A stretch of 11,648 nt of DNA, from IMG/VR virus record IMGVR_UViG_2671180963_000004, positions 1-11,648 of that record, one strand, 5' to 3'. This DNA is from a virus (taxonomy: Duplodnaviria > Heunggongvirae > Uroviricota > Caudoviricetes). The number at the start of each line of letters is the position of its first letter. Position 1 is the first letter of the stretch. The translations under genes and the position numbers were made by a program. The notes under the pieces were generated by a model. The model was not told where the DNA came from and searched no databases. It worked only from the letters and a program-made list of their open reading frames with translations. Shown piece after piece: positions 1 to 11,648 of the stretch.

Positions 1-219
1 TCACATCCACATAATTTGCTGCCCTGACGGCAACGGGTGCGGCCTCACGGCGTGGACTTCTCCCGGCTTCACGATGTATCGCTGTACCGACTCATAAGTG
101 ATGAACGTGGCGCTGCAATTCACGTTCTGACACTGGTGATAACGCTCTTTTGTCGTGTCAGTGATATAGCGACTTGTACGCGCATGTGCGGCATGCTGGC
201 ATAAAGGACAATGAAACAT
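1..219 (-). CDS. ogr: Ogr-type late-gene transcription activator (72 aa zinc-finger protein)
   Basis: Translation from ATG at 217-219 gives MFHCPLCQHAAHARTSRYITDTTKERYHQCQNVNC..., with a C-x2-C-x22-C-x4-C zinc-binding pattern, and matches P2 Ogr as I recall it. SD-like GAGGTG lies 7 nt upstream. The ORF-track extension to 282 is probably not translated. Stop codon is at 1-3. Confidence 0.88.
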   Translation of the reverse strand: MFHCPLCQHAAHARTSRYITDTTKERYHQCQNVNCSATFITYESVQRYIVKPGEVHAVRPHPLPSGQQIMWM

Positions 220-253
220 CGCGAGCACCTCTTCCGGTTTTGTTGATGGTGCC

Positions 254-282
254 ATTTTAGTTAATTTATCCTTATAAAACAA
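254..282 (-). promoter_or_regulatory. Candidate sigma70 promoter for ogr (-35 TTGTTT at 282-277, 17-nt spacer, -10 TAAAAT at 259-254, read on minus strand)
   Basis: Hexamers read by eye in the AT-rich 80-bp spacer between the D remnant stop (301) and the ogr start (219). No other support. Confidence 0.3.
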
Positions 283-300
283 ACAGATAAAATAAAAACA

Positions 301-1179
301 TCACTCATCATCTTCTGTTTCGTACTCCACATCAGAAAGCCTGACCTCAAGCTCCAGGGACGTCGTGAAGCCGCTATTATTCAGAAAATGTGTCACCTTA
401 GTGATTGTCCAGTCCTGCTCGTCTATGACGCGCTTAAAGCCTGATACTTTGACCGGCGTTTCCGTGTAAATATCTGCCCGACCAGTAGCCAGACTGATGG
501 AGAACTCCGCAACGCCCCGTTGCAGCTTATCCCACTTCGCCTGAGCGGCGCGCATGGCCTGCGCTTTCGTGGCATATACCGTGGTCAGGGCAAAAACGTT
601 GTCAGCCTCACCTGCCATGTATTCACCTTCGCGCGCTTCCGGTACTTTTGGCGCTTTCTTCTGCGTGACCGGTTTCGCTTTCGGGTGCTCCAGTGCGCGC
701 AGGTGTTTCTCTTTCTTTTTGCGTTTCAGTTTTACCTTCTGCTTTTGTGGCTTCGGGTCTTTGGTGTGTAACCACTTTGCCGTTACGCCGGTATAGGCTC
801 CACGGTCAGCAATCGCAAAATGATGGCGGTCGCCGTCGCTGCGGGTTATGGTGACCTGCGGGATTTTTTTACCACTGGCCGTCACCCCCTGCCCCGCTTT
901 GAGAAACAACAATTTTCCCATTTTTACCGACACCTCACCGCCGTTGCGTTCAGCAAGACGGGTCAGGAATTTCGCATCGGACTCCTGCGACTGGTCGATG
1001 TGCGGGATTTTAATTCCGGCCAGTGACGGAGCGACACTGGCCTCCAGCCTGTTACGGGAGGCTATCGCCTCAACAATCGCACCGAGTGTGGTGTCATGCC
1101 AGGAGCCTTCCCGGCGGGAATTGAGCGTCCCGCGAAAATCTGCACTCCGGGCGCGGATGGTAATCCGGCCAGATGACCA
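301..1179 (-). pseudogene. D: Tail protein D (P2 gpD-like), 5'-truncated or frame-disrupted remnant
   Basis: Called ORF 301-933 begins at a GTG. Manual in-frame translation continues upstream as ...ITIRARSADFRGTLNSRREGSWHDTTLGAIVEAIASRNRLEASVAPSLAGIKIPHIDQSQESDAKFLTRLAERNGGEVSVKMGKLLFLKAGQG..., up to an in-frame TGA at 1180-1182. No plausible start codon with RBS; an N-terminal portion is missing. Confidence 0.7.
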
Positions 1180-1357
1180 TCAGCTCACGCTGGCTGAAAT
1201 TCTGGCGGTAGGCTTTCACCTCGGAAATGGTCTTACAGCCCCATGCGCTGATATAAAGGGAAATCAGTGTCGCCTTGCGTTCGGCGAGAATGGTTTCAAA
1301 GTCCAGCTCCTCGACCACATCCGGTGCGGGTAGCTGGTTCAGGTCGATAATCGGCAT
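1094..1357 (-). pseudogene. J: Baseplate protein J (P2 gpJ-like) N-terminal stub; only about the first 35 codons look J-like, remainder runs into D-derived DNA out of frame
   Basis: N-terminus MPIIDLNQLPAPDVVEELDFETILAERKATLISLY matches the P2 gpJ N-terminus as I recall it. The ORF is 87 codons, far shorter than a full baseplate J protein of roughly 300 aa. Sits 4 nt downstream of the W stop, as expected for the V-W-J order. Confidence 0.55.
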
Positions 1358-1361
1358 GGTT

Positions 1362-1709
1362 TCAACTCACAGGGATGGTTAACGAAAGTGGCTGGCCGGT
1401 GTCGTTGTGCTGGCCGGTTAACGTGACCGTCATTCGCCCGTCAAAACTGCGCGCCGTAGTGACGGATGACAGGGTGACGCGGGGTTCCCATTTCAGCACC
1501 GCCATGTAACAGGCGACCTTAATCTGCAACTCAAGCGCCTGGGTCTGCGGCTGGTCAATCATTGATGCCAGCAACGAGCCGTAATCACGACGCATCACCC
1601 GTGAGCCGACCGGTGTGCGCAGGATATCGCCGATACTCTGGCTGATATGCTCAAGGTCAGTGACAGTCAGGCCATCACTGCGATTCATTCCGAGATAACG
1701 TGCTGTCAT
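1362..1709 (-). CDS. W: Baseplate protein W (P2 gpW-like, 115 aa)
   Basis: Full-length 115-aa ORF, MTARYLGMNRSDGLTVTDLEHISQSIGDILRTPVGSRVMRRDYGSLLASMIDQPQT.... Its start overlaps the V stop by 4 nt (ATGA). Position V-W-J is syntenic with P2. Confidence 0.85.
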   Translation of the reverse strand: MTARYLGMNRSDGLTVTDLEHISQSIGDILRTPVGSRVMRRDYGSLLASMIDQPQTQALELQIKVACYMAVLKWEPRVTLSSVTTARSFDGRMTVTLTGQHNDTGQPLSLTIPVS

Positions 1710-2341
1710 AGAGGACTCCCGGTTGTGCCGCCGCTGTCTCCTGGGTGTTTGTGGGTATGCAGTACCTTACCGTTTGATGAGAGTTCACCGCCGGTGTGTT
1801 CAATGTTGCCGCGCATCGTCCCGCCCTTCTGCACTTCCAGCGTGCCGGTAATCAGCCTGTTGGTGCAGACCACCTCCGGTGTGTCCAGGGTGACGCGGGT
1901 TGATGCTTTCACCATGACCACCGGCACCGTGGCAGTAACAGAATCAGAAGCCGTCACGCTGACCGTTTTAATTCCGCTTACCGTGAGTGCACTGGTTTCG
2001 GGTTCATATTCAATCACCGCTCCGTCAGGGAAACGGATATGCAGGGCATCCGCCGACGCAGACGGCGCGGGGTTATCGCCGGAATAAATCCCCGGCAGAA
2101 CGAACGCCGTGTCGAGTTCACCGCCCACGGCCAGAATCAGCACCTGCTCCCCCACGGAAGGTGCCCACCATGTGCGCGAACGACCGGCACGATGGGTCAG
2201 CCACTGAAGCCAGTCAGTGCACATGCCGCCGGTCTGCACACGGCAGCGACCGGCGTTAAGGTCGGTTTCGACGACAAGGCCGGTGCGGATCATGTTGCGC
2301 AGTGCGCGCGCGAGTTCCTGAATATTTGCGAGAGTGTTCAT
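1706..2341 (-). CDS. V: Baseplate central spike protein V (P2 gpV-like, 211 aa)
   Basis: 211-aa ORF of the length expected for gpV. Lies between S and W in P2 order. Confidence 0.85.
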   Translation of the reverse strand: MNTLANIQELARALRNMIRTGLVVETDLNAGRCRVQTGGMCTDWLQWLTHRAGRSRTWWAPSVGEQVLILAVGGELDTAFVLPGIYSGDNPAPSASADALHIRFPDGAVIEYEPETSALTVSGIKTVSVTASDSVTATVPVVMVKASTRVTLDTPEVVCTNRLITGTLEVQKGGTMRGNIEHTGGELSSNGKVLHTHKHPGDSGGTTGSPL

Positions 2342-2407
2342 AACGGGAAGGATGCCGCCGGGTCATACCGGCGGCAATGTGACGATGAGGTGTCGGGAAT
2401 GGCACAA

Positions 2408-2860
2408 CTAACGGTCGAGGTGCGCCAGAATAATCTCTTCAATCATCTGCACATCCTCACCGGTAAAGCCGAGCAGGGGACGCGCCGGATAATCAATTTT
2501 CTTACCGTCTTTCCGGTTTTCTTCCGACAGACCGAACTGATGCACACTGGCGATTTTCGGTGACTTTCCGCCGTAAAATTCCATTGATGCCTGTTCCGGG
2601 CTGGCGCGGATATGCAAAAAACGACTGGTGATAAGTTTCGCAAACATTTTTCGCTTAACACGACCAGTCTTTTTTCTGGCGCTCTGCTGCTGGCGTGGCA
2701 CGTAGGGTGTGCCGTCCGGGGCTTTCTGTGCCATCACCCGACGCTGCTGACTCTGCCGCAGGCGCTTCGCCAGTTCGGCACTCAGTCGCCGACGCCCTGA
2801 CGGTGACAGCGATTCAATCAGTCCGGTCAGCCGGTCTTCAAAACGCTTAAACTCATTCAT
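2408..2860 (-). CDS. S: Tail completion protein S (P2 gpS-like, 150 aa)
   Basis: 150-aa ORF; start overlaps the upstream R-frame stop by 8 nt, as in a coupled late operon. Sits in S position upstream of V. Confidence 0.82.
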   Translation of the reverse strand: MNEFKRFEDRLTGLIESLSPSGRRRLSAELAKRLRQSQQRRVMAQKAPDGTPYVPRQQQSARKKTGRVKRKMFAKLITSRFLHIRASPEQASMEFYGGKSPKIASVHQFGLSEENRKDGKKIDYPARPLLGFTGEDVQMIEEIILAHLDR

Positions 2861-3059
2861 CCCACTTACTCACCAGTTCGCCATTGATATAAAGCTCCAT
2901 CGGGCGGGTGACCGGCTCCGGCGGCGGAGGTTCCGGGATATTCTTCACATGCAGCGCGCCGTCCACCTCACTGACCAGCGTGCGCTCGGTCAGCATCAGG
3001 CTGATGCTGATACAGGACAGGATTCGGGAAATAAACGGCTGGCTCGGCCAGGAGGTCAT
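2853..3059 (-). pseudogene. R: Tail completion protein R (P2 gpR-like), 3' fragment only (68 codons)
   Basis: 68-codon ORF ending 8 nt inside the S start, i.e. R position. Manual translation upstream of the ATG at 3057-3059 hits an in-frame stop at 3072-3074. Full-length gpR is roughly twice this size, so this is probably a 5'-truncated remnant. Confidence 0.55.
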
Positions 3060-3105
3060 CCGCTTTAAAAACTACTCACTGGACACTGACAACGGCTGAA
3101 CATCG

Positions 3106-3126
3106 CCGCCTGCGGGCGGCTTTTTT
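3106..3126 (+). terminator. Intrinsic terminator-like hairpin (GCCGCC-TGCG-GGCGGC followed by TTTTTT), plus-strand orientation
   Basis: Perfect 6-bp GC stem with 4-nt loop, followed directly by a T6 run. Oriented for rightward transcription, opposite to the flanking late genes. Consistent with a relic terminator from the far side of a deletion, possibly downstream of gene Q. Confidence 0.4.
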
Positions 3127-3268
3127 ACACCCCGTCATCACGCCCTCACACGCTCACCACCGCACAAAACACCCCGCAGACACACCAACGCCCCGGCGCA
3201 CAATCTAAACGCCATCAAGACGCGCTCAGACGCTGAAAAAATAAAATCAGCACCACCGCCAGCGCGCA

Positions 3269-3287
3269 GTGCTTTCCCCGCCTCGCC
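3269..3287 (-). other. cos: P2/P4-type cohesive end site (cos), 19 nt
   Basis: GTGCTTTCCCCGCCTCGCC at 3269-3287 is the exact reverse complement of the P2/P4 cohesive-end sequence GGCGAGGCGGGGAAAGCAC as I recall it. Orientation agrees with the reversed gene order. Confidence 0.8.
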
Positions 3288-3472
3288 CGCCCGCTTCATG
3301 GGGCATTTTTAATGCAGTTGCATGAACACTCCAAGAGCACACCATCGCTAGTGATAACTAACAATAAAAGCGACTTCTGACGCATGCAAATCCATGCACA
3401 TGATGGCATTTTTCATGATCTATGCGGTATGCTATCCGCTTCAATTTTTAACACTTGTTAAGGGAGCTAGAC

Positions 3473-4615
3473 ATGGACATTATTGATTTAAAATCTCAAC
3501 TAGAAAATGAAGATAATGCCAAGAAAAGAGCAGAGTTGCTTGCTCAGCTAGAGGTGATAAAGCAAAACGCTGAAGAGCAAATTCGTGCTGAGCAAAAGGA
3601 TGTGGATTTTGAGACCAAAGAATTTACCGTTGAGTTATTAGTTAATAAGTATCATAGCGGATTAGAGGATGATACTAACGAACTCTTTGTTCCTGATTAT
3701 CAAAGGGATTTTGTTTGGAGTGAAAAAAGACAATCAAGATTGATAGAGTCTTTGATTTTGGGTTTTCCTATACCATATATATTTACAGCAGATGTTCTCT
3801 CCGAAGATCCCGATTTAGATGGGCGAATTGAGATTGTTGATGGCTCACAGCGAGTTAGGACTATACACGCTTTTATCCAAAATGAATTAGTTTTACAAGA
3901 TCTGAAATCTTTAGACGCCCTTAATGGTTTCAAATTCCAAGATTTACCATTATCACGTCAACGTCGTTTCATGAGAATTCCTGTCCGCGTTATAGAATTG
4001 AGTTCTAAATGCAATGAAGAAACCCGTAGAGATCTTTTTGAACGTATTAACTCTGGCAGCGATATATTGAAAGATATGGAAGTCCGTAAAGGATCAGAAC
4101 TTGGTTCAACAAATTTATATACACAGGTTATTAAGCCATGCTCAACAATACCTAAATTTAAAGAATTAGCACCTTTATCTCAGACTAAAGAAAAACGAGA
4201 TGAACGGTTAGAATTTACATTAAGATTTTTTGCCTACTTAGATAAGTACAAGAACTTTGATCATTCCGTACGGGATTTTCTAAATGACTATATGTTAGAA
4301 AATCGAGATATAGACGAAACTAAACAAAACTCAATGAAACAAGAGTTTGCTAATGTTCTATCTTTTGTTGATAACTATTTCCCAGCAGGATTCAAGAAAA
4401 CTATTACTGCAAAATCTACACCTCGAGTTAGATTCGAATCTCTCGCTGTTGGCGCAGCACTTGCATTACGTGAAATCCCTGACCTTGTTCCCAAGAACTT
4501 GGATTGGCTAAGCTCAGAAGAATTCAAACGATTGACCACTTCAGACGGAGCTAATAGTCGCGTGAAGGTAATTGAACGAATTGAATATGTTCGGGATAAA
4601 TTATTAGAGGATTAA
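3473..4615 (+). CDS. DUF262 (ParB/GmrSD-N-terminal-like) domain protein, about 380 aa, no fused DUF1524/HNH nuclease domain
   Basis: Motifs DYQRDFVW (nt 3695-3718) and IVDGSQR (DGSQR at 3839-3853) are the hallmark QR..VW and DGQQR-type motifs of DUF262. Preferred start is ATG 3473, preceded by SD AGGGAG at 3461-3466; the ORF track uses TTG 3455. No (D/E)HxxP-type nuclease motif seen in the C-terminal half. AT-rich composition. Confidence 0.8.
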   Translation: MDIIDLKSQLENEDNAKKRAELLAQLEVIKQNAEEQIRAEQKDVDFETKEFTVELLVNKYHSGLEDDTNELFVPDYQRDFVWSEKRQSRLIESLILGFPIPYIFTADVLSEDPDLDGRIEIVDGSQRVRTIHAFIQNELVLQDLKSLDALNGFKFQDLPLSRQRRFMRIPVRVIELSSKCNEETRRDLFERINSGSDILKDMEVRKGSELGSTNLYTQVIKPCSTIPKFKELAPLSQTKEKRDERLEFTLRFFAYLDKYKNFDHSVRDFLNDYMLENRDIDETKQNSMKQEFANVLSFVDNYFPAGFKKTITAKSTPRVRFESLAVGAALALREIPDLVPKNLDWLSSEEFKRLTTSDGANSRVKVIERIEYVRDKLLED

Positions 4616-4616
4616 C

Positions 4617-5297
4617 ATGGATCGTTTTCGTGAGGATTTTGACGAAAGGTCAGGAGAGATCTTGGCCTATTTAGATCTTTTGAAATTTATTGAGTATGCC
4701 GGTGCAGAACTGATATCATCTGATGATAAAGAACATAAGTTCTCCATTACTGCTCAATCACGAAAAACTCTAAAGGGGGCAGTATATATTCTATTATATA
4801 ACCTCATTGAATCAACAATGAGAGAAGCTATCTGCCTTATTCATGAGACTATTTATGATAGAAACGTAGAATTTGACAAACTCAGGAAAAATATCAGGTC
4901 AGAAATATTAAAAAGATTAAAAAATGAATCTGTAAATATTGAAAGTTTAGTTAACCGTCTTACTAAAGGTATATCTTGCGGTATATCTTATGGCACTTTC
5001 AACAAAAAGAAAATATTCTCAGGAAATATTGATAGAGAGGAAATCAAAGAAAAATCGAAAATATATGGTTTTTCAACATATTCTGATTACACTCACACTA
5101 AACATGGTGAAAAATTAGCCACTGTCAAACAACATCGTAATGATTTATCTCATGGCAATGTATCATTTGCTGAGATTGGAAAAAATGTTTCATATCAGGA
5201 CTTAGAGAATATTTCATTAGAAGTAATCGCCTATCTTGATGCAATCGCGAATAATATAGAGCACTATATAAATAATAATGAATATTTAGAACAATAG
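4617..5297 (+). CDS. HEPN-like protein with Rx4H motif (putative RNase/nuclease effector), 226 aa
   Basis: ATG at 4617 is 1 nt after the upstream TAA (4613-4615), with SD-like GAGG at 4607-4610, indicating translational coupling. C-terminal region has KQHRNDLSHG, i.e. R174-x4-H179 (cgt 5136-5138, cat 5151-5153), the HEPN signature. Largely helical-looking, K/E-rich sequence. Pairing with a DUF262 protein resembles the MAE_28990/MAE_18760-type HEPN family naming as I recall it. Confidence 0.7.
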   Translation: MDRFREDFDERSGEILAYLDLLKFIEYAGAELISSDDKEHKFSITAQSRKTLKGAVYILLYNLIESTMREAICLIHETIYDRNVEFDKLRKNIRSEILKRLKNESVNIESLVNRLTKGISCGISYGTFNKKKIFSGNIDREEIKEKSKIYGFSTYSDYTHTKHGEKLATVKQHRNDLSHGNVSFAEIGKNVSYQDLENISLEVIAYLDAIANNIEHYINNNEYLEQ

Positions 5298-5303
5298 TAA
5301 TAA

Positions 5304-5320
5304 GGCCTGCAAAGCAGGCC
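5304..5320. terminator. Bidirectional terminator-like hairpin (GGCCTGC-AAA-GCAGGCC) between convergent genes
   Basis: 7-bp perfect stem with 3-nt loop in the 29-bp gap between the HEPN stop (5297) and the methyltransferase stop (5327). Flanked by T-rich sequence on plus (ATTTTAT) and A-rich on the other side. Confidence 0.5.
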
Positions 5321-5326
5321 ATTTTA

Positions 5327-6352
5327 TCATTCTAAATGGTTCTTGATTGATTGCCCAATTGCTTTTCCTAGTTCCACAGGAACAGCATTACCTATCATTT
5401 TCCCAATACTTCTTATAACAAACTTGTCTTTGTCTTCTACAAAGATATAATCCATCGGAAAAGTTTGCAATAAAGCAGCCTCTCTAAGAGAAATCGCTCT
5501 ATGCTGTTCTGGATGTCCAAAACGTCCATTTCCGAAACCATAACAAAGAGTTGTAATTGTTGGACTTGGCTTATCCCAAGACATGCGCCCATATACACTA
5601 GCATATCCTTTACCGCTAGATTTCATATGACAAGCAGCAATCAGCTCCTTCGGCCAGTCCTTCCATGTACCACCAGGAACAGAGTGTATAATTCTTTTTT
5701 TATTAATCGGATTTAATTTACTGGCTCTATGTAATATATCATTTGGATCTGTTTGGCCATCTTCTAACGGAGGAAGATTTCCTATTGCATCTCTAACTGT
5801 TTTCAAAATAACATCGTCACGTTTTACTAACTCAATCGCCCCCAATTTTGAAGCCAACAATACATGACGGGAACGGTTTTGTGGGATTCCATATTCGACA
5901 CAATCAACCTTCGACGCCCAAACATAATAGCCCAACTTTAACAATGAATTATAAAAATCATTATAAACTTTATGTTTAGTTACATCAGGAACGTTCTCCA
6001 TTGTTACGATTTCTGGAGATACTTCGCGAATTAAACGTTCGAACTCATAAAGAAGAGGCCATTTTTTATCATCAGCCTTATCTTTTCCTTGAGTATATTT
6101 TGAAAAAGGTTGGCAAGGTGCGCATCCTGCCAATACTTTTACAGACGCATCACCATAAAGCCTCAGCAGTTCCTCTTTTGTTACTTTAGCGATATCTTGC
6201 TCAATAAACTTAGATTTATTGTTTCTTTCATAGGGAAACCGACATTCCCCCTCAAGGTCTATGCCTGCAACGACATCAAGCCCCGCAAGCTGTAAACCAT
6301 GAGTTAATCCGCCAGCACCACAAAAAAGGTCTATCACCTTTACAGTCATCAT
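5327..6352 (-). CDS. DNA (cytosine-5)-methyltransferase, Dcm/M.HhaI-like, 341 aa
   Basis: Canonical C5-MTase motifs in order: motif I DLFCGAGG (AdoMet binding), motif IV GCAPCQPFS (catalytic PCQ, about 6110-6118), motif VI ENV (about 5990-5998), motif VIII QNRSRHVLLAS, and a C-terminal GNAVPV. SD-like GGAG upstream of the ATG at 6352. Confidence 0.9.
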   Translation of the reverse strand: MMTVKVIDLFCGAGGLTHGLQLAGLDVVAGIDLEGECRFPYERNNKSKFIEQDIAKVTKEELLRLYGDASVKVLAGCAPCQPFSKYTQGKDKADDKKWPLLYEFERLIREVSPEIVTMENVPDVTKHKVYNDFYNSLLKLGYYVWASKVDCVEYGIPQNRSRHVLLASKLGAIELVKRDDVILKTVRDAIGNLPPLEDGQTDPNDILHRASKLNPINKKRIIHSVPGGTWKDWPKELIAACHMKSSGKGYASVYGRMSWDKPSPTITTLCYGFGNGRFGHPEQHRAISLREAALLQTFPMDYIFVEDKDKFVIRSIGKMIGNAVPVELGKAIGQSIKNHLE

Positions 6353-6435
6353 TCACTCCAAATCTATACGATGCTCAGTATACATCCCTTTCTACAAAAT
6401 CTCGAGGCCTAACTTATAAACTCCTATTGATTGAG

Positions 6436-8535
6436 TTAACGCTTCACTGAGTTTGACTCTAATACTGTTGAGAATCCCGGCCACTCATCAGCGACCTGAT
6501 AAGTAAAATGTTTCCCGTCATAATTTACGGTCGCCCCACGCGCCAGCGCCTCAAGCTCCCATCGCTGCGGCCTGATACCGTTCTGAGCGAGGTCAACGCG
6601 GATACGGGTAATTTGCATTCGTTCCGACCGGGTCAGTCTGGCCGATGGTGCCATTTCATACTGTTTTAACGGGCTTCCGTTTCTCTGCTGACGATTTGGT
6701 GTTCTCAGCCCGTGTTTTAATGCGCCCCTGAGCGCCCTCACGACCTCCGGGTCATTCCATTCGATAACACCGTCATCAACCAGATTAAGCACTGCTGCGG
6801 CGTGCTCAGAAGGCGTGGGAGCCGGTAACGAAGTATCACCGCTGGTGAGCTTTCCACAGTTATTGACAGGACTCCGAGGCGCGGCGATGCCGCTTTTTAA
6901 AGTCAAAGGCTCAACGACCGGCACTTTCGGAACAATGCGCCAGTCCGTCGTTCTGGTGATATGAATATGACGCGCGCCGAGATGCGGCGCGTAAATGCCG
7001 ACCACTCTCTCGACTTCTTCCTCGTACTCGTTAACTTCATCCGACGGACTACGGGCGACCCTGACAGTCTGACAATCGCGCGGGACATTTGCCCCACCCT
7101 GCGCGCTGATATACAGCGCAAAATCACCACTGTCTGCGGCGGCGCGTGCAGCCTCGACGCGCTCGTCAAACTCATCAGCAATGCTGACGCCGCGAGGCAA
7201 TTTGCGTAGTTCACGGTAAGCCCCCATTGTCGGCAGGCCAACCGTTTTAAATTGCGGAATGCGCCACGTTGACGCCCATGCGGTAACAGCCGCGGCAGTA
7301 TCTTTCAGCGGTCTGCCGGTATCGTTATCGAGCTGCCCATCCAGTGCATAGCCGTCGATATTTTTTGAGATGTATTTCGCGATATACCCCGCAGCACCGC
7401 CCCGATTAAGATGTTTTGCCTGAAAACGGTTTCGCGCGGCTCCTCTTTCGTCGCCATCCTCTTTGAGCGCATAGCGACGCATGATTTCGATAATCTGGTT
7501 ACGCTGGCGTGGATTACAAAAAAACATCATATGCCAGTGCGGCGTTCCGTCGTGGTGTGGCTCGACGACTCGCAAACCGTAGACCTGTAAATCATTATCC
7601 TTGAATGCCGTGCGCATCAGGCTCCAGATACGGCAGAGATAACGCTGCGCATCCTTTGGATTAAATGCCTCATCGTTCCAGCCGTGATTTAGCTGGACGG
7701 TTTTACTTTCGCCTTTTCCAACCTGACGTGTCGGGTGATACTTTGACGGCGCGGTCAGCGTGATAAACATCCCCACATCACCCTCTGCGGCGGCGTAACG
7801 CTCAATACCGGCAATGGTGTTCATCAGCTCCATCCGGCGAATTTCAGGATTAGAAATACTGCCCATCACCTTACTGATAAGGTCGATGCGCTCGCCTGTT
7901 TCCCTGTTTTCGAGATCACACGATTTAAGAAATTCCAGATTTGCCTGGCGGCGTGCACGCACATCACGAATGGCATGTTTACTGGCATAAGGAGAACGGT
8001 CTTTATTGACCTCCCCGACAGCAATCAGTAACGCCTCATGCCAGCGCATACGCTGGCCTTTAAGCTGATGAGTCCACCACTCATCGTTAAACAGACGGGC
8101 AATGGCAGAATATGCCTGCCTCGTGGTCATCTGTCCTTTACGGTATTTTTTCCAGTAGAGAGGGGAAATATTGAAAGCACGTGCAGCGCCAGCAACATGA
8201 CCATAGAGGTGAGCCTGCGCCTCATCCGTAAACAGCGATTCTTTTTCGCCATGCGCATCCACCCATGCATCGCAGAGTTCCTCATACATCATGAAAAGCT
8301 GCGATGAGATACGGGCGGCAAACTTTTTCAGCTCCTTGTCATTCATTCCAGGCAGGCGCGCATAATGGTCACGCTCTGCCAGAAACAGCAACGACGCGTC
8401 GGTGTTCATTTCATGGCGCTGATTCACGCGCTCAATGCGCGGCCATAAGCGACGCTGAAAAGTGGATGTGAGGAAATAAAACCCGTGCAGCAGGTATTGG
8501 CGCATCACACTCTTCGCAAACCAGCGAAGAAACAC
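6436..8535 (-). CDS. A: Replication initiation protein A (P2 gpA-like rolling-circle HUH endonuclease)
   Basis: HUH motif in PHHDGTPHWHMMFF and tyrosine pair in GYIAKYISKN, typical of P2 A-family initiators. Called start 8533-8535 is a GTG with an in-frame stop 9 nt upstream (8545-8547); an in-frame ATG at 8503-8505 (MRQYLLHGFYF...) is an alternative start. Coding region overlaps the upstream zinc-finger ORF. Confidence 0.85.
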   Translation of the reverse strand: MFLRWFAKSVMRQYLLHGFYFLTSTFQRRLWPRIERVNQRHEMNTDASLLFLAERDHYARLPGMNDKELKKFAARISSQLFMMYEELCDAWVDAHGEKESLFTDEAQAHLYGHVAGAARAFNISPLYWKKYRKGQMTTRQAYSAIARLFNDEWWTHQLKGQRMRWHEALLIAVGEVNKDRSPYASKHAIRDVRARRQANLEFLKSCDLENRETGERIDLISKVMGSISNPEIRRMELMNTIAGIERYAAAEGDVGMFITLTAPSKYHPTRQVGKGESKTVQLNHGWNDEAFNPKDAQRYLCRIWSLMRTAFKDNDLQVYGLRVVEPHHDGTPHWHMMFFCNPRQRNQIIEIMRRYALKEDGDERGAARNRFQAKHLNRGGAAGYIAKYISKNIDGYALDGQLDNDTGRPLKDTAAAVTAWASTWRIPQFKTVGLPTMGAYRELRKLPRGVSIADEFDERVEAARAAADSGDFALYISAQGGANVPRDCQTVRVARSPSDEVNEYEEEVERVVGIYAPHLGARHIHITRTTDWRIVPKVPVVEPLTLKSGIAAPRSPVNNCGKLTSGDTSLPAPTPSEHAAAVLNLVDDGVIEWNDPEVVRALRGALKHGLRTPNRQQRNGSPLKQYEMAPSARLTRSERMQITRIRVDLAQNGIRPQRWELEALARGATVNYDGKHFTYQVADEWPGFSTVLESNSVKR

Positions 8536-8620
8536 CGCAATGTTTTACCCTTGCCGCGTTAATCTGGCGCTCCAGTAATTCAGCCTGTTGTTCCTGAATA
8601 AAATCTACGTTGTCCGGCAT
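8432..8620 (-). CDS. Small TraR/DksA-like zinc-finger protein (possibly degenerate), 62 aa
   Basis: Contains CEECDAPIPAAR, resembling the C-x2-C-G-x-P-I-P-x-x-RR core of TraR-family phage zinc fingers. The expected second CxxC pair is absent in all three frames; the tail is VLFPHIHFSASLMAAH. Overlaps the A start region by about 70-100 nt. Confidence 0.45.
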   Translation of the reverse strand: MPDNVDFIQEQQAELLERQINAARVKHCGVSSLVCEECDAPIPAARVLFPHIHFSASLMAAH

Positions 8621-8622
8621 TA

Positions 8623-8925
8623 TCAGCTCCTTTTATCGTTAAGTTTCCTGGATACATCAGCGCAATAACTGGCGAGTTCTGTCGTTAATTTTGTCAGTTC
8701 ATCCACTGAGGAAATTTGCTTGTGGAACACAGCGCGTTTAACAAGTAAATTGACCACATCAGACAGGAGGTTTAATTCATTCTGATAAATCGCGATAACA
8801 GATTCAGTTATGTCGCGTTTTTCTTTATCAAGACAAAGTTGAATAAGAGACAAATCACCATTTTCCATAACGGCGATTTTTAAGGCGTTATTCAGTAATA
8901 CAACTGAATGAGAACAGGACATCAA
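8623..8925 (-). CDS. Hypothetical small early protein (100 aa), in the B-to-A interval
   Basis: ORF in the same orientation as the early operon; start overlaps the upstream ORF stop by 4 nt (8922-8925). No recognisable motif. Confidence 0.5.
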
Positions 8926-9146
8926 AGCACCTCCCCGCGAGACAATCCGATATTGTGAAATTTTTCCGACTCCTGACTGAGCAGCTCGACTATCTCCACG
9001 CGGGATAACTCCGCCTTTGTGATATGGCGAATCATGGCGTCAAGATGAGAAGAAAAGCGCGTCGCAGCGTCGGCCTGTGCTTCGGTTCTGGCCTGTTGCA
9101 GCAGTAATGCGTATTTACCGCACTGATTTTCAGAAACTGTATGCAT
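8922..9146 (-). CDS. Hypothetical small early protein (74 aa), downstream of B
   Basis: ORF in early-operon orientation, coupled by overlap to the next ORF. No recognisable motif. Confidence 0.5.
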
Positions 9147-9209
9147 GACTTTCTCCAGGCAAAAAGAAGCCCCGCACGATTAAGTGCGTTAAAAACTCTG
9201 GTTAATTAT

Positions 9210-9710
9210 TTAATGCAAATATTGCTCTGGTTTTACCGACGTCAGAATTGTCGGTGCATACTCAAACAGACTGAATAGTTCACGTAATGCACGGAATAAA
9301 GCATCACGCCAGTAACATGACTCTTCATTAATTCGCCAGTATGGCTGATTGAATTCTTTTTCAGTCAATCCGGCATGCATAAATAAAGTACGACGCTGAC
9401 TGACTGTTAAAAAACTAATATATGCATACTCACTTGCGCCAACCTGACGGCGTTTTGAGAATGCCCCACGCAATTCATCAATTGCACAAACCAGCCGTTC
9501 ACGTTCGACGTCGTTCATTTCTTCAAAACGCATCGTTGCGTGACGTTGTTTTAACTGCGCATGAAAGCAAACTGTTAGCCGTTCGCGCTCCATCATCTGA
9601 TTATAATAATCACATGTATCCTGCCAGCGAGGGACGGCAAGATGCTTACCAATTATCCGGCGCATAGCTGCTGGCTGTTTTTCGACGAGATTGAGCGTCA
9701 TCACTGTCAT
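9210..9710 (-). CDS. B: Replication protein B (P2 gpB-like, 166 aa, helicase-loader-type early protein)
   Basis: 166-aa ORF of the length and position (downstream of cox and a small ORF, upstream of A) expected for P2 B. Confidence 0.75.
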   Translation of the reverse strand: MTVMTLNLVEKQPAAMRRIIGKHLAVPRWQDTCDYYNQMMERERLTVCFHAQLKQRHATMRFEEMNDVERERLVCAIDELRGAFSKRRQVGASEYAYISFLTVSQRRTLFMHAGLTEKEFNQPYWRINEESCYWRDALFRALRELFSLFEYAPTILTSVKPEQYLH

Positions 9711-9877
9711 TTCCAGACCCTCCGGCTTTTCAGAAAGGTCAGAGCCTTTTTTAACGGACTCTGTTTTTTGGTGCGGATAATGATTCCCTTACGCCCCTTA
9801 CCGTGGGTGATGGTGAAGTCAATCGCCCTGGGGCTTTCGTTACGCAGTAACTGAGCAATACAACGCGGTTCACTCAT
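9707..9877 (-). CDS. Small early ORF between cox and B (orf78-like position), about 56 aa
   Basis: ORF track starts at ATG 9902-9904, which would overlap the cox 3' end by 25 nt. In-frame ATG at 9875-9877 lies 2 nt after the cox stop and is preferred. Stop overlaps the B start (ATGA-type). Confidence 0.45.
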   Translation of the reverse strand: MSEPRCIAQLLRNESPRAIDFTITHGKGRKGIIIRTKKQSPLKKALTFLKSRRVWK

Positions 9878-9879
9878 AA

Positions 9880-10152
9880 TCACAACCCCATCCACAAAAG
9901 CCATGCATCACGCTGTTCAACTGGTCGGTTATAAAACGCCTCTCGTACAGCGCGATTAAACTCTGGAATGAAAACCCACTTCTCACCGACACGAGCGTTC
10001 GGCTTACTTGGATCACGAAGCTCAATAACTGGCAATTTATTCTCTTTTACCATCTTGACTACAGCCGTTTCTGGCTTACCAAGTAACTCTGCAAACTTAA
10101 CCGTATGTACCGCATCAATCGGGTACTGAATCACATAGTCATTGACTTCCAT
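9880..10152 (-). CDS. cox: Cox (P2-type excisionase/early-promoter regulator), 90 aa
   Basis: 90-aa ORF, first gene of the minus-strand early operon and divergent from C. Region KLPVIELRDPSKPNARVGEKWVFIPEFN...RDAWLLWMGL resembles P2 Cox as I recall it. Confidence 0.78.
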   Translation of the reverse strand: MEVNDYVIQYPIDAVHTVKFAELLGKPETAVVKMVKENKLPVIELRDPSKPNARVGEKWVFIPEFNRAVREAFYNRPVEQRDAWLLWMGL

Positions 10153-10304: not shown

Positions 10305-10598
10305 ATGCAGACATTCGAAAAACTGAAAGCGATTAGGAAAGCAGAAGGCTTAACACAGGCGAAATTCAGCGAAATTAGCGGGATAGCTCTAGGAACAGTC
10401 AAAAATTACGAAAGTGGGCATAAAGACCCTGGTCTCAGCATCGTTATGCGAGTCACAAATACGCCTTTATTTAAAAAATATACGCTCTGGTTAATGACTG
10501 GTGATACGTCACCACAAGCTGGTCAGATCGCGCCGGCTCTCGCACACATTGGGCAAAAACCAACAGAATCAGACCGCTCCGAAAAACAGACTGGTTAA
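10305..10598 (+). CDS. C: Immunity repressor C (P2 C-like, 97 aa, HTH)
   Basis: N-terminal helix-turn-helix region LTQAKFSEISGIALGTVKNYESG. C-terminal KYTLWLMTGDTSPQAGQIAPALAHIGQ closely resembles P2 C as I recall it. Divergent from cox and upstream of int. Confidence 0.82.
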   Translation: MQTFEKLKAIRKAEGLTQAKFSEISGIALGTVKNYESGHKDPGLSIVMRVTNTPLFKKYTLWLMTGDTSPQAGQIAPALAHIGQKPTESDRSEKQTG

Positions 10599-10667
10599 CA
10601 CTCTATAAACATTACATTTTCACCATTTGTTACCAAGATGGTGAATACAGCGTCAGAGGGCTTTCTT

Positions 10668-11648
10668 ATGTCAATTAAGAAGCTCGATGATGGACGCTAT
10701 GAAGTGGACATTAGACCTCGCGGTCGCGACGGAAAACGCATCCGCAGGAAATTTGAAAGAAAAGCTGAGGCTGTAGCATTTGAGCGATACACAATCGCCT
10801 ACGCCAGCCAGAAAGAATGGGCAGGTCAGCGAGCAGATCGCAGAACTTTGAGTGAGTTGCTGGACATCTGGTGGAAATATCACGGGCAAAACCACGAGCA
10901 TGGAACAAAAGAGTTTAATCATCTGCTCAAAACCATCAGCGGCATAGGTGATATACCAGTGAGCCGGATGAGCAAAAGAGCTTTGATGGATTATCGTTCC
11001 ATGCGACTACGAAATGGTATCAGTGCCGCAACGATAAACCGTGACATGTACCGATTATCCGGCATGTTCACAAAATTAATTCAATTGGATGAATTTTCCG
11101 GGCAACACCCAATTCACGGACTGCCGCCACTGGCGGAGGCCAACCCTGAAATGACGTTCCTGGAAAAAGCAGAAATCGAAAAACTGTTAAATGTTTTGGA
11201 TGGTGATGACTTACTTGTCGCACTTTTATGTCTGAGCACTGGAGGAAGATGGACGGAAGTTGCCACGCTAAAACCAGCACAGATTACAAATTGCAGGGTT
11301 ACCTTCCTGAAAACCAAAAACGGTAAAAAGCGAACCGTGCCGATTTCTGAGGAACTGGAGAAAAAAGTTAAAGAGGAGGCCAGCGCTAAATTATTCAAAG
11401 TTGATTATGAGAAGTTTTGCGGGATTTTACGCAGAGTGAAGCCAGATATACCACCCAATCAGGCAACCCACATCCTGCGGCATACATTCGCAAGCCATTT
11501 CATGATGAATGGGGGCAATATAATCGCACTGCAACAGATTCTGGGACATGCGAGCATTCAGCAGACGATGGCCTATGCGCACCTTGCGCCTGACTACCTG
11601 CAAAATGCCGTCGCGCTGAATCCTCTAAAAGGCGGAGTGACGTTATAA
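10668..11648 (+). CDS. int: Tyrosine integrase (P2 Int-like), about 326 aa
   Basis: MSIKKLDDGRYEVDIRP... matches the P2 Int N-terminus as I recall it. C-terminal catalytic region HILRHTFASHFMMNGGNIIALQQILGHASIQQTMAYAHL carries the H-x-x-R box and Tyr of tyrosine recombinases. Preferred start is ATG 10668 with SD AGAGGG at 10655-10660; the ORF track starts at 10638. Stop is at 11646-11648, the window edge. Confidence 0.9.
   Translation: MSIKKLDDGRYEVDIRPRGRDGKRIRRKFERKAEAVAFERYTIAYASQKEWAGQRADRRTLSELLDIWWKYHGQNHEHGTKEFNHLLKTISGIGDIPVSRMSKRALMDYRSMRLRNGISAATINRDMYRLSGMFTKLIQLDEFSGQHPIHGLPPLAEANPEMTFLEKAEIEKLLNVLDGDDLLVALLCLSTGGRWTEVATLKPAQITNCRVTFLKTKNGKKRTVPISEELEKKVKEEASAKLFKVDYEKFCGILRRVKPDIPPNQATHILRHTFASHFMMNGGNIIALQQILGHASIQQTMAYAHLAPDYLQNAVALNPLKGGVTL

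Follow-up and report, generated by a model that had tools for sequence, protein, structure and literature searches.

The remnant, its early operon, and the closest intact relative

The window, by which we mean the whole 11,648-nucleotide stretch of DNA that was analyzed, is an 11.6-kb prophage remnant that sits between cpxP and fieF/pfkA in Escherichia coli. Its ends coincide exactly with the stop codons of ogr and int, and the att sites therefore lie outside it. The integrase and repressor genes and the P2-like early operon are laid out as follows (all coordinates are those of the window):

10638-11648, (+) strand: integrase, 336 codons from the first ATG
10305-10598, (+) strand: immunity repressor C (HTH_3), intact, with 100% identity to its counterpart in the intact prophage
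9880-10152, (-) strand: cox
9707-9904, (-) strand: orf78
9210-9710, (-) strand: B
8922-9146, (-) strand: orf80 (DUF2732)
8623-8925, (-) strand: orf81 homologue (DUF5405), intact, directly upstream of orf82'
8432-8620, (-) strand: chimeric open reading frame (ORF) orf82', ATG at 8620, 62 codons, TGA stop at 8432
6436-8488, (-) strand: replication gene A', truncated to codons 83-765 and the stop codon of the intact gene

RefSeq and gene callers annotate a shorter integrase of 326 amino acids, starting at 10668.

In E. coli CFSAN064036 (NZ_CP028166.1), this cpxP site carries an apparently complete P2-like prophage, which shares its integrase, repressor, and cargo genes with the window. Alignment with blastn returned two blocks across the region of interest (prophage coordinates are those of the extracted prophage locus, L007):

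window 11648-8487 = prophage locus 236-3397: 0 mismatches in 3162 positions
window 8489-3011 = prophage locus 3994-9472: 0 mismatches in 5479 positions

Over these 8.6 kb, a gap of 599 bp is the sole difference between the window and the CFSAN064036 prophage, which thus supplies the intact orthologous locus, the defined indel, and the identical flanks that mark a deletion pseudogene.

The DUF5405 profile of Pfam matches both orf81 (8623-8925; E = 6e-30) and orf83, the gene missing from the window (prophage locus 3485-3760; E = 7e-13), so that orf81 and orf83 are paralogues flanking orf82 in intact P2-like phages. The label "replication initiation protein" that some RefSeq records attach to orf81 or orf83 has no evident basis.

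A chimeric ORF with half of a zinc finger

The ORF orf82' is preceded by a strong Shine-Dalgarno sequence (aaaaggagctgataATG); its translation is MPDNVDFIQEQQAELLERQINAARVKHCGVSSLVCEECDAPIPAARVLFPHIHFSASLMAAH, and its 62 codons carry CEECDAPIPAAR. The sequence-only reading had described an ORF here with a CEEC-D-x-PIP-x-x-R core, a His-rich tail in place of the second CxxC that no alternative frame could supply, and an overlap with the A frame. These observations were all borne out. The ORF runs for 62 codons from ATG 8620 to its TGA and encodes one CxxC followed by D-A-PIP-A-A-R and a tail with three histidines (H51, H53, and H62). All three frames were scanned over 220 nucleotides counted from that first CxxC, and none has a second one; the A frame is open from GTG 8535, with ATG 8505 inside it. 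The ORF is composed of two parts that meet at a junction:

8483-8620, (-) strand: retained 5' part of orf82, which encodes the first CxxC (C35-E-E-C38) and an N-terminal helix bearing D3/D6
8486-8489: deletion junction, with a 3-bp TGC microhomology (8489-8487) common to both parental sites and A-only sequence from 8486
8432-8482, (-) strand: orf82' tail and stop codon, whose DNA is that of intact gene A, +2 frame, from nucleotide 252

Residues 1 to 46 are identical to the corresponding part of the 74-amino-acid TraR/DksA protein of the intact prophage (MPDNVDFIQEQQAELLERQINAARVKHCGVSSLVCEECDAPIPAAR-RAAYPSATRCVSCQSVFEAKNKHYRRTA), a protein found on at least 1000 contigs, and orf82' is therefore not a chance ORF. 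Codons 45 and 46 lie at or after the junction, where Ala-Arg is still encoded by coincidence. Codons 47 to 62 (VLFPHIHFSASLMAAH) are out-of-frame gene A.

TraR-type proteins are built from an N-terminal helix that carries DxxDxA at its tip, a globular domain with a CxxC-17-CxxC zinc site, and a C-terminal helix in contact with beta Si1 of RNA polymerase (PMC9239242). In orf82', the helix tip is retained as M-P-D3-N-V-D6-F-I, identical to that of the intact orthologue; the Ala of the DxxDxA motif is naturally missing from P2 Orf82 too (PMC9239242). Of the four-Cys zinc site, only C35-E-E-C38 is present, whereas the intact orthologue adds C56-V-S-C59, and the C-terminal helix is absent because orthologue residues 47 to 74 (RAAYPSATRCVSCQSVFEAKNKHYRRTA) are deleted. 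Profile searches gave the same picture. Pfam zf-dskA_traR (PF01258) scored 14.4 bits against residues 34 to 47 of orf82' (E = 0.038; profile positions 5 to 18 of 36), so that no match was obtained at E <= 0.01 and the gathering cutoff of 24.9 bits was not reached, whereas full-length Orf82 of phage L-413C scored 36.4 bits over profile positions 5 to 35.

A 599-bp deletion between orf82 and gene A

The missing interval was mapped against phages L-413C and FSL SP-004 and the CFSAN064036 prophage by anchored base-by-base comparison and blastn. The base-by-base comparison fixes its size at exactly 599 bp, which leaves a remainder of 2 on division by 3. Gene orf82 is retained to nucleotide 134 and is followed by A from nucleotide 248, so that orf82 codon 45/46 is fused out of frame to A codon 83. 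Around the TGC microhomology, the parental sites show imperfect homology (CCTGCTGC versus CCCGGTGC). Lost with the 599 bp are orf82 codons 47 to 74, which encode the second CxxC and the C-terminal helix; orf83 in its entirety; and, from A, the first 82 codons (start codon included) together with the ribosome-binding site.

Intact phages document what the interval contains. In the annotated genomes of L-413C (a Yersinia phage) and FSL SP-004 (a Salmonella phage), it spans the 3' part of orf82, orf83, and the A start; orf82 (annotated as a "DksA-like zinc-finger protein") is 225 bp and orf83 (DUF5405) 276 bp, and the A start overlaps the end of orf83 by 11 nucleotides. A 901-bp query taken across the site matched 75 phage records at 90 to 99% identity. 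In all 65 of the records that cover most of the query, the match falls in two pieces spanning 1500 bp, and each of these records has full orf82 and orf83 genes. No intact P2-like phage therefore has the same C terminus and overlap, which makes the arrangement a lesion rather than a conserved feature. The possibility that orf82' and A' are coupled in translation, or linked by a programmed frameshift, was considered and rejected, given that the arrangement occurs in no intact phage.

The tail is explained by the same comparison. The sequence VLFPHIHFSASLMAAH, together with its stop codon, reappears unchanged in the +2 frame of intact A, starting at nucleotide 252, and identity to the intact prophage is 100.000% on both flanks; the His-rich tail is thus unmodified A read in the wrong frame, and its DNA never evolved as coding sequence. 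Two further conclusions follow from that identity, namely, that the histidines are accidental rather than evolved ligands of a Cys2-His site and that an evolved fold of the chimera is ruled out.

The half-finger ORF and its seeming overlap with A demonstrably come from a single out-of-frame deletion at a 3-bp microhomology. We regard it as close to certain that orf82' is a junction product, left when a P2-like (Peduovirus) prophage remnant in E. coli recently lost 599 bp of its early operon in one event, and this analysis turned up nothing that contradicts the deletion itself. The "decaying gene" that the sequence-only reading had offered as one of two alternatives was, in this sense, the right one. 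The event, which joined orf82, a phage TraR homologue, to A at the nucleotides given above, was probably replication slippage or illegitimate recombination at the TGC microhomology, which lies inside an imperfect 8-bp match. Because 599 is not divisible by 3, a ribosome reading orf82 would enter A in the wrong frame and translate 16 accidental codons before a stop, while the A frame happens to stay open into orf82 sequence and creates an illusory overlapping start.

Gene A' without its native start

The A-frame ORF extends over 699 codons from GTG 8535 to 6436 and is overlapped by orf82'. From His83 onward, A' and the intact 765-amino-acid gpA agree at every one of the 684 positions aligned, counting the stop (0 mismatches), and the Phage_GPA domain (Pfam PF05840) is complete (E = 2.5e-124; profile positions 1 to 321 of 321; residues 67 to 396 of the 699-amino-acid ORF). 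The codons upstream of His83 are of a different origin:

8490-8535, (-) strand: VFLRWFAKSVMRQYL, a spurious addition at the 5' end of the A-frame ORF, orf82 in the +1 frame and not native gpA

These 16 codons are orf82 read in the +1 frame, and VFLRWFAKSVMRQYLL, which precedes His83, occurs verbatim in that frame of intact orf82. The earlier supposition that A must start at GTG 8535 or ATG 8505 was consequently mistaken, as both codons lie in this sequence and the native start is deleted. Both are also poor starts, with AAGGG 12 nucleotides upstream of GTG 8535 and GAAGAG 4 nucleotides upstream of ATG 8505; a third candidate, ATG 8409, has no Shine-Dalgarno-like sequence upstream. Automatic gene callers differ in where they start A', calling a 689-amino-acid protein in one assembly and a 657-amino-acid protein in another.

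With codons 1 to 82 and the start context deleted, the window does not encode a full-length gpA with its native N terminus. The deleted segment is conserved in the family: in 84 of 87 phage records, the alignment takes in at least 80% of the first 130 gpA residues. Among these records are those of Yersinia enterocolitica phages, where identity is about 40%. The literature searched yielded nothing usable on a function for the gpA N terminus or orf83. A protein made without a proper translation start and this conserved segment would be expected to be inactive, and A' has likely lost its function; residual activity from an internal start is possible, considering that the Phage_GPA catalytic domain and the 699-codon frame are kept. 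No conclusion about selection follows from the frame being open, as too little time has passed since the deletion for substitutions to accumulate.

Wider decay of the remnant and an intact cargo module

Compared with the CFSAN064036 prophage, the window has three more large deletions:

second deletion: 8489 bp, junction 3011/3010, Q (portal) to R (tail gene), 2 bp of microhomology
third deletion: 4443 bp, junction 1254/1253, J to FI (sheath), 2 bp of microhomology
fourth deletion: 4868 bp, junction 1162/1161, FI to D, 0 bp of microhomology

Together they take out the capsid, lysis, and most tail genes, leaving a defective element, and such additional multikilobase losses are consistent with ongoing decay. 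A 94-bp island of the sheath gene is left between the 4443-bp and 4868-bp deletions. Among the further chimeric ORFs that have arisen at these junctions are two:

1094-1357, (-) strand: deletion chimera J'/FI'/D', 87 amino acids, with a faint Pfam match to Phage_sheath_1
2853-3059, (-) strand: deletion chimera Q'/R', 68 amino acids, with a faint Pfam match to P2_Phage_GpR

Gene callers list both as proteins. At the D'-ogr end (3-1161), 37 mismatches in 1159 bp bring the identity with the CFSAN064036 prophage down to 96.8%, against 99.7 to 100% in the rest of the window. The difference suggests that the right end is mosaic or that the direct ancestor was a slightly different one.

Three cargo genes lie in the stretch that separates A from the late-gene remnant (3455-6352), all of them intact and 100% identical to the CFSAN064036 cargo:

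5327-6352, (-) strand: Dcm-type C5 cytosine methyltransferase
4617-5297, (+) strand: HEPN MAE_28990/RiboL-PSP protein
3455-4615, (+) strand: DUF262/GmrSD_N protein

The DUF262/GmrSD_N protein matches PADLOC NsnA (E = 2e-54) and PD-T4-2_A (E = 5e-35). Together, the three genes at 3455-6352 are a P2 cargo-hotspot defense module surviving in the remnant.

The intact cargo bears on whether the 599-bp deletion, although real, was selected. According to this explanation, the loss was favored because it disabled both Orf82, a growth-inhibiting modulator of RNA polymerase, and the cis-acting nickase A, thereby locking in and detoxifying a cargo-bearing remnant. The survival of the methylase and DUF262/HEPN genes in an element whose structural genes are gone fits such a scenario, as does a report that overexpressed P2 Orf82 halts cell growth, which is relayed from earlier work in PMC9239242. 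Nevertheless, zero substitutions in 8.6 kb mean that the event is too recent for a selection signature to be visible, and the lineage is tiny, at 4 to 7 contigs. Moreover, the immunity repressor C is intact; from P2 biology, it should hold the early operon, with orf82' and A' among its genes, in a silent state in a lysogen, where products of either are therefore unlikely. Neutral decay explains everything observed, and positive evidence for selection is lacking, so that we consider selection improbable.

Could the chimeric product retain a function?

Both truncated products are expected from their sequences to be nonfunctional. Half of a finger would form no C4 zinc site and have no helix to contact beta Si1, which would leave the orf82' protein inactive, and the peptide is probably unable to fold into a zinc domain. 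Nevertheless, should the early promoter fire, the 62-amino-acid peptide could be made, given that the strong Shine-Dalgarno sequence and the D3/D6 helix are kept. A composite alternative holds either that the chimera is partly active through this helix, as a zinc-independent or His-assisted secondary-channel peptide, or that the deletion was selected as a cargo-stabilizing step of domestication; we think it very unlikely.

Another proposal, and the second alternative of the sequence-only reading, is that orf82' encodes a genuine variant TraR-like protein with a Cys2-His or Cys2-His2 zinc site and a conserved long overlap with gene A. Its attractions are the good Shine-Dalgarno sequence and the three histidines (H51, H53, and H62) that follow the first CxxC. 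However, the tail DNA is the same as that of out-of-frame A, so no selection has acted on those histidines; the arrangement, moreover, recurs in no intact phage. The Pfam match covers half of the profile at a score below threshold, the ORF is confined to a few near-clonal E. coli assemblies, and no TraR homologue without a C4 finger has been identified according to PMC9239242. We reject this proposal with hardly any reservation.

Distribution of the junction

An exact look-up of the 62-amino-acid protein led to the source: the window is an exact match to the reverse complement of positions 6973-18620 of contig CYEL01000013.1 in the draft E. coli assembly GCA_001283625.2 at NCBI. Three independent assemblies, one from NCBI and two from Logan that stem from different sequencing runs, share the junction (L003, L004, and L005), and each is at least 99.97% identical to the window and different from it by at most 1 base. 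The 62-amino-acid chimera occurs on 4 to 7 contigs, versus at least 1000 for the intact 74-amino-acid protein, and its several NCBI accessions are all named "hypothetical protein [Escherichia coli]." That the ORF is a sequencing or assembly artefact, from a collapsed or misjoined contig, might be thought of because the source contigs are drafts, but the identical junction in three independent assemblies, the multiple protein accessions, and the lack of any repeat longer than 3 bp on which an assembly could collapse leave next to no room for it.

Scans for the exact junction were empty in phage records (none of 58 matching records spans it), in 5426 complete E. coli genomes, in GTDB species-representative genomes, in IMG/VR, and in JGI metagenome contigs, and the deletion is therefore not a widespread variant. 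Among the collections scanned, the junction is limited to a few near-identical E. coli draft assemblies. A form of the remnant without the 599-bp deletion was likewise not found among complete E. coli genomes, none of which covers at least 80% of window positions 1-6500.

Implications for annotation and prophage decay

The case is one of ordinary, recent prophage decay: orf82' is a pseudogene of the common sort and does not represent a novel type of zinc finger. Its parent gene, P2 orf82, is already known, as is the decay of prophages through microhomology deletions, and orf82' extends neither the TraR/DksA family nor P2 biology. What the locus offers is an annotation correction, in that orf82' (a "hypothetical protein") and A' (a "replication endonuclease" of 689 or 657 amino acids) are better recorded as pseudogene fragments. 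It also provides a clean, datable case of microhomology-mediated prophage decay, with four deletions and essentially no point substitutions, and a reminder that an out-of-frame fusion can mimic a "variant" domain.

Comparison with known systems

P2 Orf82 is a member of the TraR/DksA family that binds in RNA polymerase's secondary channel (PMC9239242). It competes with DksA for RNA polymerase, complements a delta-dksA strain, and inhibits the rrnB P1 promoter with an IC50 of about 250 nM (PMC9239242). Like P2 Orf82, orf82' has its place in the early operon after orf81, a Shine-Dalgarno sequence, a D3-x-x-D6 helix, and the first CxxC. Unlike it, orf82' has 16 accidental residues instead of residues 47 to 74, with their second CxxC and beta Si1 helix.

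A similar division holds for the replication protein. In common with P2 gpA, an HUH-type rolling-circle initiator, A' has codons 83 to 765 identical to those of intact gpA and a full Phage_GPA domain. It differs from gpA in having neither the native start and ribosome-binding site nor the first 82 codons, and its remaining starts have a weak Shine-Dalgarno sequence or none.

Cryptic or defective P2-like remnants are known in E. coli, for example, the ogrK-containing remnant of K-12. The element in the window resembles these remnants in lying at a chromosomal att site, in having lost most late genes while keeping ogr and int, and in carrying several internal deletions with 0 to 3 bp of microhomology. 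It stands apart from other such remnants in being very young and in having its defense cargo still intact.
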